Source: Escherichia phage Pisces
Direction: 5' to 3' (one strand)
DNA: 39,497 nt
Sequence record: MK903277.1
Shown here: piece after piece, positions 18,265 to 38,804 of the stretch
How positions within the stretch are numbered: the first letter of the stretch is position 1
How the letters are laid out: the number at the start of each line of letters is the position of its first letter
The notes under the pieces: model-generated
Seen by the model: the letters and a program-made list of their open reading frames with translations, nothing else
The model's database searches: none
Told to the model about the DNA's origin: nothing
Position numbers and translations under genes: made by a program

Positions 18265-18666
18265 ATGCTCCACTACCGAAACTCAAGCGATGGTCGCCGC
18301 ATGGCTGCTGAACGCCTCTGGGAAGACGGACAGTCTGACTTCGCCTCATTCTCTGAGTTCAAACAACATACCTTCCGTATGGCTGATGAGCTTGAGGGTG
18401 AGGAGTACACAATCTACGATGATGAGTGTAAGCCTGTGGCCTACCTCTACATGCTGGCTTCATCGTCTTGGCACCGAAAGACTCCCGGTCTTGACCTTTC
18501 CATTCTCGCTATCCGTAGTGACTCGCAGTCCTCCCGCAAGGTTCTTGAGACTGTCAGACACATTATCGACGGAGAGTGCAGACGATGGGGTCTTAACTGG
18601 TGGTCCCGTGTCAAGCACAATGGGCCAGTAGACATCGTAACAACCAAGGAGATTAACCGTGGGTAA
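18265..18666 (+). CDS. Gene 7-like protein (133 aa)
   Basis: Same size and position as T7 gp7; no motif recognised. Confidence 0.5.
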   Translation: MLHYRNSSDGRRMAAERLWEDGQSDFASFSEFKQHTFRMADELEGEEYTIYDDECKPVAYLYMLASSSWHRKTPGLDLSILAIRSDSQSSRKVLETVRHIIDGECRRWGLNWWSRVKHNGPVDIVTTKEINRG

Positions 18667-33254: not shown

Positions 33255-35996
33255 ATGGCTAAAACAACTATCACTCAGTTCCCTGCTGGTCAATCGCAGT
33301 ATCGAATTGAGTTCGACTATCTGGCCCGACCTTTCGTCGTCGTAACGTTGGTGAATAGCTCCAACCAGACGCAGAATAAGGTCCTCGTCGTAGGTCGTGA
33401 CTATCGGTTCCTGAGCGCAACGGTCATTGAGATTCTGATTGCTCAGACCGGATTCGACACCCTGCGCATCCACCGTCAGACTGGCACCGACTTGGTGGTA
33501 GACTTCCGTGACGGTTCGGTCCTGACTGCAAACGACCTGACCAACGCTGAACTTCAGGCCATTCATATCGCTGAAGAAGGTCGTGACCAAACGGTTGACC
33601 TTGCGAAGGAGTATGCGGACTCAGCCTTGACGTCAGCAACCAATGCGAAGAACTCTGAGAACGAGGCTCGACGTATCGCTGAAAGTATCAAGACTGCTGG
33701 TCTGATGGGATACATCACCCGCCGCTCGTTTGAATCTGGTATCACAATCCGTGAGTGGAACGAAGCTCTGCTCTGGGAAGCTGACGGTAACTACTATCGT
33801 TGGGATGGTACGCTACCTAAAGTCGTTCCTGCTGGTTCAACTCCAGATTCTGCTGGTGGTGTTGGCAAAGGTAAGTGGCTCTCCGTTGGTGACGCAACGC
33901 TACGCACTGAGATGCTTCGTGGTCGCTTCAAGTTCGAGGGCGCTGAGTCTGTATACTATGTCCCGAACATCAACTTCAACACTTCGGTCGATAACCGCGC
34001 TGCTGCCTATGCGTTTGCCAATAAGATTTATATCCCTCGTGATGTGACCATCCGTGTGAACCTGCTTCCTGATGATGATGTCCGTAAGTTCGTTGGTGAG
34101 GGCAAGCTGATTGTCAAGAACCAGTTCTACGGCGGTGACATGCTGTTTGACGTAGAGAAGGCGACCAATGGTAACAAGCGCTCGGTCAAGTCCGTACTTC
34201 TTGAAGCTGTGCGCTCTCAGTCCTACGCTGACGGTACAATAGGGATTGTGGGTGACTCCATCACAGACGGTGCTTGGGGTAAACAGAACTGGAGTTCCCC
34301 ACCGTTGGATTCTAACCGCAACTTAGCTGCTCCTGTGGACTATAACCACGGGTTAGCTGGAGGCTCCCACTCATGGTGTGCGCATTGGCAGTGGCTAATG
34401 AACATGGTTCAGTCTCGCTGGACTCGTGAGCCTATCTTCCAAGTCTACAATGCGTCCCTCTCTGGGGCCAAGCTGTCAGACGGATGGGGCTACCGTAACT
34501 TTGACCGTGGGTTCTTCGGGAACGTTCGGTATGGCGCTAAGGCCCCTCGTGTCTGTATTCTGGCTATGGGTTGGAATGACTCCAGTCAAGACATGGCGAC
34601 CTACCGCGACCAGATTGATATGTTCGTCCGTAAGGCGTGGGGTTATGGTTGCACCGTTGGTATCGTGACCGTGAACGACAACGACTGGTCCCGCATTGGG
34701 TTCGAGGGTGCGACCAAGCGTCAGATGTGTGAGACCTTGGGTATCGACTACTTCAACTTAGGGCCAGAACTGACAACGATGTCCAACATCAACATGCAGG
34801 GCATGGACTATTACTACGTGAAGAAAGAACCTCAGTACGACACCACACACCCTCAGGAGCTGGGACAGAAGGTAATGGGTGGCTCAATGTTCATGCAGAC
34901 CCTCGGTGAGAAGTACGTTCGCCGTGTGCGTCCGGGTGACATGATTAACACCTCCGTGGTCGAGAACTTCTGGGATGCAGTAACGTACCCTTCGCAGAAT
35001 CACCTCCGTCCTCAGTACGGTAAAGCTGGTGGTACTCCTAAGCTGAACACCCTCGGTTATCTGCCTATGGCTCAGACCGCCGGAGAGAACGTAACGTTCA
35101 ATACCTTCGTGTGGTGCGAAGAAGAGGATATGTCACTGACGGTGATGGAGCCGTGGACTGGTGCTGGTAAAGTGGGAGACAACAACCATCTCCGAGTCTG
35201 GGCACCCGCTGGTCTGGTTCTGGATGAAACCGATGCGAACTACGGTACGCGCAACAAGAAGATTAACGACTACTGTCAATACAACGTTGGCAAACTGGCG
35301 TCAAACTATCTTGGTGGTTCCCGCACACTTACCACGTATGCCGGGCGTCTGCGCAAAGGTCTCAACCAGATTGCAATCGTGAACGGGGGCGCTCTGCCTA
35401 CCTGCTGGTATCCAGCCCTGAAGTTCGGACACATCACGACCGATGGTATCACCATCCCGCTGACCCGTCTGTCCATCTCCCAGTCCTCAGCTCCAGTCCC
35501 GTTCATTGCGGACGGCTACCAGTTTGATGACTACGTGCTGTCTAATGCGTTCTCTGGACGCGCTGGCGCAATGACGACTGATGGTTATATCCGTCAGGGT
35601 ACGGTTGTAGGCCGAGTGTACGTCAAATCTGGCTTTGGCCTGAACACCTATCTGGCACTGAACCTCGACTCCCTGTCTGGTAATGCAATCCTCATCGGGG
35701 TGGCATCCAACGGTCAGATTGCCTGTGGGTCATGGCTGGGCAAGGAGCCGACTGACTGGACTCTTCTGGGAGACATCACGACCAAGGACTTCACGAACGT
35801 GCCGTTCACGGTGTGGGTCTACACCAACGCTAGTGGTCAATACACTTTCTCTATCATCACTGATGATGGACGAGTTGTAGCGAACCCGATTGCCACGACT
35901 GTAGTGACCTCCGGTCGCATCGGTGTATTCAAGCGGACCACTGGTTCCTTCATGGCTCAGATTGAGGCTAACTGGGGCTTCACCAACGTAGGGTAA
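33255..35996 (+). CDS. Tail fibre / tailspike protein (gene 17) with C-terminal SGNH/GDSL-hydrolase-like domain
   Basis: 913 aa; N-terminal ~150 aa match the T7 gp17 particle-binding domain ([39 protein letters not shown]); distal part contains GDSITDG (about 34252), GWNDS (about 34570) and DTTHP (about 34840). Confidence 0.85.
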
Positions 35997-36493: not shown

Positions 36494-36496
36494 GTG

Positions 36497-36545
36497 TTAG
36501 ACTCAAGGTCATTACTATATGTAGTGGCCTTTATGATTAACACAC
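36497..36545 (+). promoter_or_regulatory. Putative RNase III processing hairpin (R18.5-like)
   Basis: TTAGACTCAAGGTCATTACTATATGTAGTGGCCTTTATGATTAA; same motif family as 6816, 13636 and 3278. Confidence 0.5.
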
Positions 36546-36594
36546 ACTACGAGCGGCGACGCTACGTGGATTCTGAGAAATGAGGAGGGCAACT

Positions 36595-37044
36595 ATGCTC
36601 GAACTTTTACGTAGATGCGCCCCTTGGCTGGTGGCAGGACTCATGTTCTGCTCAGGTTACTGGGTGGCAGACAATAAGTGGGAGGCGAAAGTAAGCAATG
36701 AGTACATCACGAAACTTGAGGCACGAGAGAATCAACGGGCTGCTGTCCAAGGTGAAATCGACAAAGTGTCAGCCGAGTGGCAAGACAAGATGTCCGCGCT
36801 GGAAGGCTCTACTGATAGGATTATTGCTGACCTTAACCGCGATAACAAGCGGCTGCGCATCCGTGTCAAACCCACCAGTGGAACAGTCCAGACTGACGGT
36901 CGATGCGTCATTGATGGTTACGCCGAACTTGACGAACGAGATGCTAAGCGTCTTATCGCCATCGGACTGAAAGGTGACGAATGGATTAAGGCCCTCCAGA
37001 AGACCGTGAGAGCCATGCAGCAAGAGAAGGAGGTGAAACCTTGA
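36595..37044 (+). CDS. Rz-like i-spanin (gene 18.5)
   Basis: Start ATG 36595 with SD GAGGAGGG; N-terminal TM helix [13 protein letters not shown]; [26 protein letters not shown] parallels T7 gp18.5. Confidence 0.85.
36698..36970 (+). CDS. Rz1-like o-spanin lipoprotein (gene 18.7), embedded in a different frame within the i-spanin gene
   Basis: MSTSR...[23 protein letters not shown] has a lipobox; C-terminal [15 protein letters not shown] matches T7 gp18.7 SLMVEPNLTTEMLNV. Confidence 0.85.
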   Translation: MSTSRNLRHERINGLLSKVKSTKCQPSGKTRCPRWKALLIGLLLTLTAITSGCASVSNPPVEQSRLTVDASLMVTPNLTNEMLSVLSPSD

Positions 37045-38804
37045 GTCAAGACTTAGCGGCGCGTCAGGCGCTTATGACTGCCCGTATGAAGGCAGACTTC
37101 GTGTTCTTCCTGTTCGTCCTGTGGAAAGCTCTGTCCCTCCCGGTCCCGACTCGCTGTCAGATTGACATGGCGAAGAAACTATCGGCTGGGGACAACAGGC
37201 GTTTCATCTTACAGGCGTTCCGTGGTATCGGGAAGTCATTCATTACGTGTGCCTTCGTGGTCTGGAAGCTGTGGAACAACCCGGACTTGAAGTTCATGAT
37301 TGTGTCGGCCTCAAAGGAACGAGCTGACGCGAACTCCATCTTCATCAAGCGTATCATCGACCTGATGCCTCAGCTCCAAGAGTTGAAGCCTAAGCAGGGG
37401 CAGCGAGACGCAGTAATCAGCTTCGACGTAGGGCCAGCCAAGCCTGACCACTCACCTTCGGTTAAGTCCGTTGGTATCACTGGTCAGTTAACTGGTAGCC
37501 GTGCGGACATCCTGATTGCCGATGACGTAGAGGTCCCCGGTAACTCAGCGACTCAAGCTGCAAGGGACCGACTGTCTGAGCTGGTGAAAGAGTTTGACGC
37601 AATCCTGAAGCCGGGTGGTACGGTTATCTATCTGGGTACTCCTCAGACCGAGATGACCCTATATCGTCAGCTTGAGGGCCGTGGCTACTCGACTACAATC
37701 TGGCCAGCTCGTTACCCGCGTGATGAGAAGGACTGGAAGTCTTACGGCGACCGTCTGGCCCCGATGCTTCAGGCAGAGCTGGAGTCGGACCCTGAGGGCT
37801 ACTACTGGCTCCCAACGGATGAGGTCCGCTTCGACGATGAGGACTTGAAGGAACGTGAGCTGTCCTATGGCAAGGCTGGCTTCGCTCTCCAATTCATGCT
37901 TAACCCGAACCTTGGCGATGCCGAGAAGTACCCGCTGAAGCTGCGTGACCTTATCGTAGCGGACTTGGACCCTGAGTCTAGCCCTATGGTCTACCAGTGG
38001 CTCCCGAACCTCCAGAACAAGCGTGATGACGTTCCTAACGTGGGACTCATGGGCGACAGCTATCACACGTATCAGACTGTAGGTTCTGCGTTCAGTTCGT
38101 ACACCCAGAAGATTCTGGTCATTGACCCTAGTGGTCGTGGTAAGGATGAGACGGGCTATGCGGTCCTGTATCAGCTCAACGGCTACATCTTCGTGATGGA
38201 AGCTGGTGGTATGCGTGGTGGCTATGAGGACTCAACGCTGGAGGCTCTGGCGAAGATTGGTCGCAAGTGGAAGGTGAACGAGTACGTCATTGAGGGTAAC
38301 TTCGGTGATGGTATGTACCTCGAACTCTTCAAGCCTGTAGCGGCCCGTATTCACCCGGCAGCAGTGACTGAGGTCAAGAGCAAGGGCCAGAAGGAACTCC
38401 GCATCTGCGACGTTCTGGAGCCTATCATGGGGTCTCACCGACTCATCGTGAACTCCTCGACCATTGTGTCTGACTACCAGACTGCTGCTGACAAGGATGG
38501 CGTCCGTAACCCTATCTACTCTCTGTTCTACCAGATGACCCGTATCAGCCGTGAACGTGGAGCCTTGGCACACGATGACCGACTGGATGCTCTGGCTATC
38601 GGTGTACAGTTCTTCGTAGAGTCTATGGCTAAGGATGCCGTGAAGGGCCAGCGTGAAGTTACCGAGGAGTGGCTGGAGGAACAGATGGAAGACCCGAAGA
38701 AGGGCTTTAAGTCCATCGAGACGGACTACTGGGCCAATGGGGTACGGGTACAGTTCAATACAGATGATGACTTGGGCTTAGGGTCCTACGTTCAGTTCCA
38801 CTGA
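37041..38804 (+). CDS. Terminase large subunit (gene 19)
   Basis: 587 aa; apparent TTG start with SD AGGAGGTGA; extensive identity to T7 gp19 ([79 protein letters not shown]). Confidence 0.95.

Follow-up and report, generated by a model that had tools for sequence, protein, structure and literature searches.

The embedded i-spanin and o-spanin genes of Escherichia phage Pisces: a T7-type pair with a probably long o-spanin signal sequence

The genome of Escherichia phage Pisces (MK903277.1) contains, inside a gene of the i-spanin type, a second and shorter open reading frame (ORF), and this locus raises the question of whether the nested frame is a gene in its own right and, if so, where its product begins and what the two proteins would contribute to lysis. 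The original prediction had read the two frames as an embedded two-component spanin pair. The present analysis covered the window, by which we mean the whole stretch of DNA that was analysed (39,497 nt, one strand), and compared the spanin locus with its relatives. By sequence comparison, Pisces is a Kayfunavirus, that is, a K1F-like relative of T7: the DNA of its spanin locus is 96-98% identical to that of Cronobacter phage GW1, Shigella phage SFP21A, Escherichia phage Ro103C3lw, and Citrobacter phage SH4, and Escherichia phage IMM-002 is 93.6% identical to the first 25 kb of the window across 91% of that length. A wider comparison set was made up of 72 distinct i-spanin genes, including those of K11-like Klebsiella phages that are approximately 50% identical. 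The coordinates of the lysis genes and of the elements of the spanin locus are collected in Table 1.

Table 1. Coordinates in the window of the lysis genes and of the sequence elements of the spanin locus.
Feature	Position	Strand	Remarks
Endolysin, N-acetylmuramoyl-L-alanine amidase (T7 gene 3.5 lysozyme homologue), 152 aa	10799..11257	+	PF01510, E = 5.6e-16
Holin (T7 gene 17.5 homologue), 64 aa	36039..36233	+	PF10746, E = 7.1e-22; PHROG 920 holin, E = 3.4e-26
Shine-Dalgarno AGGAGG for i-spanin	36583..36588	+	6-nt spacer to ATG; read from the sequence
i-spanin gene (T7 gene 18.5 homologue)	36595..37044	+	149 aa and stop; PHROG 1327, T7 homology
Predicted N-terminal membrane anchor of i-spanin	36616..36669	+	residues 8-25; homology and inference
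GGAGG before the o-spanin ATG	36681..36685	+	12-nt spacer, longer than optimal; kept in Kayfunavirus relatives
o-spanin gene (T7 gene 18.7 homologue)	36698..36970	+	90 aa and stop; PF17531, PHROG 4306
Long basic N-terminal extension of the o-spanin precursor	36698..36805	+	residues 1-36; 10 K/R, 1 D/E
o-spanin signal core and lipobox TSG/C	36806..36856	+	Cys53 codon 36854-36856
Predicted mature o-spanin	36854..36967	+	38 aa, Ala at +2
i-spanin Cys104 codon	36904..36906	+	invariant in both alignments

The outer gene runs from an ATG at 36595 to a TGA at 37042-37044. Another in-frame ATG, at 36580, was considered as its start and rejected because it overlaps the Shine-Dalgarno sequence of ATG 36595 and is unconserved, with ACG or some other non-ATG codon in its place in most relatives; the combination of GGAGGG, a 5-nt spacer (CAACT or GCAACT-type), and the downstream ATG is kept in all Kayfunavirus relatives. 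The product matched PHROG 1327, a family labelled "Rz-like spanin," over residues 1-147 of its 149 (E = 2.6e-59). Its match to the lambda Rz family of Pfam (PF03245, Phage_lysis) reached 17.8 bits (E = 0.0039), below the gathering cut-off of 25.4, and for this reason we assign the protein to the family of PHROG 1327 and T7 gp18.5 and not to the Pfam Rz family; a precomputed PF03245 match is present on some of its close relatives. The homologous K1F protein is accepted as an i-spanin in SpaninDB (PMC6139136).

As read from the translation, residues 8-25 of the i-spanin form a run of 18 uncharged residues with a short basic N-terminus (R6 and R7) before it and D26 and K28 after it. P10 does not vary in either alignment, and W11, A14, F18, and G21 vary little or not at all. 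The segment is moderately hydrophobic, with a Kyte-Doolittle 19-residue maximum of 1.21 against a usual level of 1.6, and it is helical in a low-confidence AF2 model; we call it a predicted transmembrane anchor on inference and homology. The same model, built on a 26-sequence alignment (mean pLDDT 61.5, low), predicted one helix from residue 2 to 87 and another from 114 to 147, joined by a linker (88-113), which suggests at low confidence that the protein is mostly helical and follows a helix-linker-helix plan like that of lambda Rz. Cys104 lies within this linker, a stretch modelled at low confidence as flexible or disordered between the two predicted helices, and is the only periplasmic cysteine of the pair besides the lipid-modified Cys53 of the o-spanin. 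Since Cys53 is the sole cysteine of the mature o-spanin, any covalent linkage would be one between two i-spanin chains.

The inner frame lies where the original prediction put it, wholly inside the i-spanin gene but read differently, and all of the coordinates given there hold: it opens with the ATG at 36698, closes with the TGA at 36968-36970, is read in the +1 frame, and takes up nt 104-376 of the 450-nt i-spanin gene. Its product matched the Pfam family PF17531 (O_Spanin_T7) at 76.6 bits, well above the gathering cut-off of 25 (E = 1.5e-21; residues 29-87 aligned with positions 1-58 of the 59 in the model), and also PHROG 4306, another "Rz-like spanin" family (E = 3.1e-36). The identification of this layout as the one known from T7 likewise held, given that the T7 RefSeq record nests gene 18.7 in gene 18.5 and that the i-spanin and o-spanin are 55% and 53% identical to T7 gp18.5 and gp18.7, respectively. 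The GGAGG ahead of the o-spanin ATG consists of i-spanin Trp-Glu-Ala codons. The periplasmic domain of the K1F o-spanin is listed with 38 aa in the SpaninDB tables (PMC6139136 supplement), the same length as that of the predicted mature protein here. A search of NCBIfam returned no model matching the i-spanin, the o-spanin, or the holin.

A rival account takes the nested frame to be open by chance, or to be annotated out of a habit carried over from T7, and the i-spanin gene to be the single real gene. Gene callers behave much as this account would have it, as they almost never call the o-spanin, which accounts for 3 clusters of the protein collection where the i-spanin accounts for 184 (several of these 184 relatives being named spanin or Rz-like) and is left unannotated in many relatives, among them GW1, Dev2, and the IMM-002-type records. 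Some of the features of the frame also arise by chance at appreciable rates. When the i-spanin gene was recoded synonymously 20,000 times with the codon usage of the window itself, the +1 frame stayed open for at least 91 codons in 4% of the recodings, and a lipobox-like pattern appeared in 11%; a +1 ORF that starts with ATG and spans 90 codons or more was obtained in 19 of the 20,000 (0.1%). A lipoprotein-signal filter applied to all six frames of the 39.5-kb window passed three ORFs, and the o-spanin was the only one of them on the coding strand.

Against a chance frame stands the distribution of synonymous change along the i-spanin gene. Third-position entropy was computed in the i-spanin frame across 20 distinct relatives, at sites that are second positions of the o-spanin frame. 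It was 0.86 ahead of the overlap and 0.99 past it; within the overlap it was 0.82 in the o-spanin's N-terminal extension, 0.36 in the signal core and lipobox, and 0.63 in the mature o-spanin, such that synonymous change is strongly suppressed exactly where the nested frame encodes its signal core and lipobox. The pattern shows that the two overlapping reading frames are both under selection. The wider set speaks against chance in the same way: all 72 distinct relatives, down to approximately 50% i-spanin identity, have a +1 ORF with an ATG, a hydrophobic core, SGC, and a mature tail of 35-38 residues. The match to PF17531, a curated family, and the standing of T7 among the embedded +1-frame systems tested by experiment, which are treated in a separate section of Kongari et al. 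2018 (PMC6139136), point in the same direction; our statements on the T7 experiments are based on that paper and on PMC8365609. The comparative data thus show that the nested frame is more than chance and effectively refute the chance account, which we regard as having next to no likelihood. The embedded o-spanin gene belongs to a kind that automatic callers usually miss.

The nested product was predicted to have a lipoprotein signal ending in the lipobox ITSGC, and most of this description stood. The string is present at residues 49-53, it is preceded by a hydrophobic core (Kyte-Doolittle 13-residue maximum of 2.58 at residues 37-49), and the sequence fits both the PROSITE PS51257 pattern, matched at residues 43-53, and the permissive pattern [ILMFTV][^REKD][GAS]C. 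What did not stand is the lipobox as first delimited and its implied regularity: the four-residue lipobox proper is TSG/C, its Thr at -3 fails the strict consensus [LVI][ASTVI][GAS]C, and the signal is long if translation starts at the ATG, from which the Cys at residue 53 falls outside the 15-35 position rule of PROSITE (with a start at GTG 36752 it would fall at 35). The same deviation in signal length occurs in T7 and in all relatives. It is the generic lipoprotein rule, and not the spanin family, from which the lipobox and the signal length deviate. Several o-spanin lipoboxes are described as non-consensus by Kongari et al. 2018 (PMC6139136), where the strict consensus is quoted. Among the 72 distinct relatives, the lipobox reads TISGC in 60 and ITSGC, the minority form found here, in 12, and SGC is common to all of them. 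The mature protein begins C-A-S-V and thus has no Asp at +2, as sorting to the outer membrane requires. The rule that Asp at +2 brings about Lol avoidance is established for E. coli.

The 60 nt that encode the core and lipobox of the o-spanin, and 20 residues of the i-spanin in the other frame, are the most conserved DNA of the locus, with 95-100% nucleotide identity among Kayfunavirus-type relatives and 53-67% in the flanks. Some contigs combine 5' halves and 3' halves of different types on either side, one example being L020, which matches the K1F type at 99% identity upstream and the type of a second contig, L018, at 98% identity downstream. Mosaics of this kind indicate that the i-spanin's C-terminal module and the mature part of the o-spanin travel as a single unit. 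Such joint exchange, seen for the 3' module of the i-spanin, is the only indirect hint that the C-termini of the two proteins bind each other, and it is a triviality for DNA that both genes share.

The part of the o-spanin that precedes the core is the one feature of the pair that calls for a choice between readings. Its frame is open in every relative, and the lipobox Cys, counted from the conserved ATG, falls at residue 49, 53, or 54 in all 72 of the distinct relatives, which would give these T7-family o-spanins a signal of 48-53 residues with a basic N-terminal extension of 30-36 residues that evolves freely in sequence. The third-position entropy over the extension is the same as that of the non-overlapping parts of the gene, which indicates no constraint on sequence, and the chance of the extension staying open under synonymous recoding was put at 0.08-0.5 per lineage. 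At the homologous o-spanin start, an ATG is present in 72 of 72 relatives. Where the i-spanin has Ala-Glu or Ala-Asp in place of Asn-Glu, the o-spanin ATG is regained a codon further upstream, out of Asn-Ala (AAT GCx). The ATG moreover depends on the rare codons AAT or GAT, AAC accounting for 85% of the Asn codons of the genome.

From these observations we consider that translation of the o-spanin probably starts at ATG 36698, in which case the protein most likely has an atypically long signal sequence of 52 residues. The first approximately 36 residues would then be tolerated and not selected for their sequence, and in our reading the long N-terminal region exists because a conserved ATG and an upstream GGAGG fit at that place, in the i-spanin stretch Lys-Trp-Glu-Ala-Lys-Val-x-Asn-Glu-Tyr.

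The length of the signal has been met elsewhere by moving the start. The curators of SpaninDB noted a "very long SS" for T7-like o-spanins and picked downstream starts for K1F, CR44b, and 13a that shorten the signal, using a TTG for K1F and CR44b (PMC6139136 supplement). Applied to Pisces, this approach would keep the same spanin pair and start the o-spanin at GTG 36752 (Cys at residue 35) or at TTG 36716 (Cys at residue 47), with products of 72 and 84 aa, respectively, giving a near-normal signal length and leaving at least the first 18 codons of the annotated ORF outside the protein. Such a start would sit well with an extension whose entropy (0.82) is close to that found before the overlap (0.86) and with a Pfam model that begins only at residue 29; some ATG, GTG, or TTG that would place the Cys at residue 15-35 is found in 57 of the 72 relatives, and a 74-aa form is used by some database entries (P0123). 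The downstream codons, however, are not shared between clades, being ATG in the T7 clade, TTG in K11-like and K1F-like phages, and GTG in only seven sequences of the clade to which the window belongs. The TTG chosen for K1F and CR44b is CTG in the window, GTG 36752 is without a properly spaced Shine-Dalgarno sequence, and it is the upstream ATG that is universal, restored by a compensating shift, and dependent on rare codons. We therefore hold a downstream start to be unlikely, though the better placed of the two alternatives to a tolerated extension. The conserved ATG, taken together with the long and unconstrained extension, argues against ad hoc downstream starts for T7-like o-spanins in curated tables.

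The second alternative accepts the start at ATG 36698 and gives the basic extension a function, either as a brake or timer on Sec export or on lipoprotein maturation, or as a cytoplasmic tether or anchor, by which the formation of spanin complexes would be paced with the holin clock. That the presence and length of the extension are kept, with the Cys confined to three positions in all 72 relatives, and that its composition is consistently basic (10 Lys or Arg against 1 Asp or Glu here) are compatible with a role of this sort. The extension is, however, under no sequence constraint except that of staying open, and its basic, Ser- and Thr-rich composition may be the mere yield of the +1 frame of a helical coding region rich in Glu, Lys, and Ala; support for such a function was looked for in the literature and none was found. 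We consider a functional extension improbable and retain the reading in which translation begins at ATG 36698 and the extension is tolerated. The long signal of the T7-family o-spanins is the single loose end of the locus, one that the SpaninDB curators noticed and handled by shifting start codons.

As to lysis as a whole, the original prediction had taken the spanins to confirm a complete lysis cassette with the amidase at a distant locus. All four of the T7-type lysis genes (holin 17.5, amidase 3.5, and spanins 18.5 and 18.7) are indeed present, intact, and syntenic with T7, and the amidase matched T7 lysozyme over its full length (PDB 1ARO_L, E = 1.4e-70). The word cassette fits less well, as the genes are dispersed as they are in T7, with the amidase approximately 25 kb from the spanins and gene 18, encoding the small terminase, between the holin and the spanins, and completeness is here a statement of inventory and not of function. 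Taking the family matches, the nesting, and the gene set together, we consider it very probable that the pair is the two-component spanin of a Kayfunavirus in the embedded 18.5/18.7 arrangement of T7.

By analogy with lambda Rz/Rz1 and the T7 literature, the i-spanin would reside in the inner membrane with its N-terminus in and its C-terminus out. The o-spanin would be exported, lipid-modified on Cys53, and cut by signal peptidase II, after the lambda and T7 precedents, and it would be sorted to the outer membrane by the Lol pathway because it has no Asp at +2. The C-terminal regions of the two proteins would then bind each other across the periplasm, again on the model of lambda and T7, and once the holin and amidase had removed the peptidoglycan barrier, the spanin complex would fuse or disrupt the outer membrane as the last step of lysis. 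Pisces would thus appear, from its gene content, to carry an intact outer-membrane-disruption step, a result of little importance beyond correct annotation.

Several side searches were also made. A search of the whole window against Rfam at gathering thresholds found nothing, and scans for sigma-70 promoters and intrinsic terminators between 35900 and 37300 gave counts at shuffle expectation. The sequence GATTAACACACACTACGAGCGGCGA upstream of the i-spanin gene was considered as a repeated phage promoter motif and dismissed, having a single occurrence in the window. A further ORF (18290-18631), which occupies another frame within the gene 7 homologue, was examined as a possible second embedded gene and had no family match.

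Set beside known systems, the spanin pair of Pisces is ordinary and already known, and it offers nothing new. Its predicted general plan is that of lambda Rz/Rz1, in which an inner-membrane protein of type II, made up of two helical segments and their linker, is paired with a small outer-membrane lipoprotein embedded in the +1 frame, and the presumed mechanism is alike in that the pair acts after the holin and endolysin (PMC6139136). Sequence similarity to lambda Rz is marginal, as the sub-threshold PF03245 score indicates, and lambda Rz1 differs in having a short, normal signal and a periplasmic Cys for an intermolecular disulfide, whereas the mature o-spanin here has no such Cys. Approximately 70% of embedded pairs have an o-spanin that begins 0.4-0.5 of the way along the i-spanin (PMC6139136); here the o-spanin ORF begins at 0.23 of that length, and it is only the hydrophobic core that begins at approximately 0.46.

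The resemblance to T7 is far closer. Gene 18.7 of T7 (37032-37283) lies inside gene 18.5 (36917-37348) in the RefSeq record with the same nesting and frame, and both genomes have the same order of holin 17.5, small terminase 18, a conserved structured intergenic region, 18.5/18.7, and large terminase 19. The differences are of detail. The lipobox is ITSGC here and TISGC in T7, the latter form fitting both the strict and the permissive patterns, and the o-spanin precursor has 90 aa with Cys53 as opposed to 83 aa with Cys49. An ATG internal to the T7 o-spanin would provide a canonical signal of 31 aa, whereas only a GTG is available here. The spacer between GGAGG and the o-spanin ATG is 12 nt here and 6 nt in T7, and the i-spanin stop overlaps the TTG start of the terminase here, whereas T7 has a 21-nt gap. 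Summer et al. 2007 is said to be the primary paper on Rz/Rz1 equivalents, T7 included.

Within Kayfunavirus the distance is smaller still. Kongari et al. 2018 assigned K1F to the "T7" family for its i-spanin and to the "K11" family for its o-spanin (PMC6139136). In the K1F subgroup the 5' half has diverged (65-67% nucleotide identity), the lipobox is TISGC, and the o-spanin ATG lies one codon upstream. Citrobacter phage SH4 is annotated with genes of 450 and 273 nt, identical in length to those of Pisces, and with the i-spanin at the same position, and in one IMG/VR contig (L004) the i-spanin differs by one residue and the o-spanin is identical. At the protein level, the differences between the spanins of Pisces and those of the Kayfunavirus members K1F, SH4, GW1/Dev2, and CR44b are essentially nil.

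The spanin locus, in which the o-spanin gene (36698-36970) is embedded in the i-spanin gene, is by sequence comparison a mosaic. Its 5' and 3' modules assort independently around a segment of approximately 60 nt (36799-36858) that is near-invariant between the window and four other spanin loci (L013, L017, L018, and L020) and that codes for the signal core and lipobox of the o-spanin and, in the other frame, for 20 residues of the i-spanin. In contig L020, the upstream module matches the K1F type at 99% and the downstream module matches the L018 type at 98%. The embedded o-spanin hardly figures in protein databases: it was represented by 3 clusters in the protein collection versus 184 for the i-spanin, it lacks annotation in close relatives such as the Cronobacter phages GW1 and Dev2, and its annotated entries differ in start codon, with ATG giving 90-91 aa and TTG giving 74 aa.

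The spacer between gene 18 and the i-spanin gene gave stable hairpins on folding, with an MFE of -34.6 kcal/mol (z=-4.57), a value that none of 200 shuffles reached. In its main stem, ACUCAAGGUC pairs with GUGGCCUUUAUG, a pairing kept as far as T7 with changes from G-C to G-U. An Rfam search of the spacer returned no match; by position, the hairpin probably corresponds to R18.5, an RNase III processing site of T7.

Features discussed in the text and their coordinates in the Pisces genome
Feature	Position	Strand	Description
Gene 7 homologue	18265-18666	+	PHROG 2746, host range and adsorption protein
Alternative-frame ORF	18290-18631	+	113 codons, inside gene 7 homologue
Tail fibre/spike gene	33255-35996	+	913 aa
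Intergenic spacer, gene 18 to i-spanin gene	36494-36594	+	101 nt, hairpins
Large terminase, gene 19 homologue	37041-38804	+	probable TTG start at 37041

The PHROG search returned nothing for the alternative-frame ORF, which is probably open by chance.

The tail fibre/spike product is, judging from its database matches, a chimera of an N-terminal adaptor of the T7 gp17 type (residues 13-124; PF03906) and a tailspike of the phage G7C gp63.1 type (residues 153-913; PDB 4QNL, E=3e-246), and is much longer than T7 gp17 (553 aa). A GDS motif was read in its translation, and the Pfam GDSL lipase match was weak and sub-threshold.

The large terminase gene most likely starts at the TTG, which overlaps the i-spanin stop codon (TTGA, 37041-37044) and is preceded by AAGGAGGT (37027-37034) with a 7-nt spacer. 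This start gives an N-terminus equal in length to that of T7 gp19 and is the one annotated in GW1, whereas the annotation of the Citrobacter phage SH4 places the start of the large terminase at an ATG further downstream.
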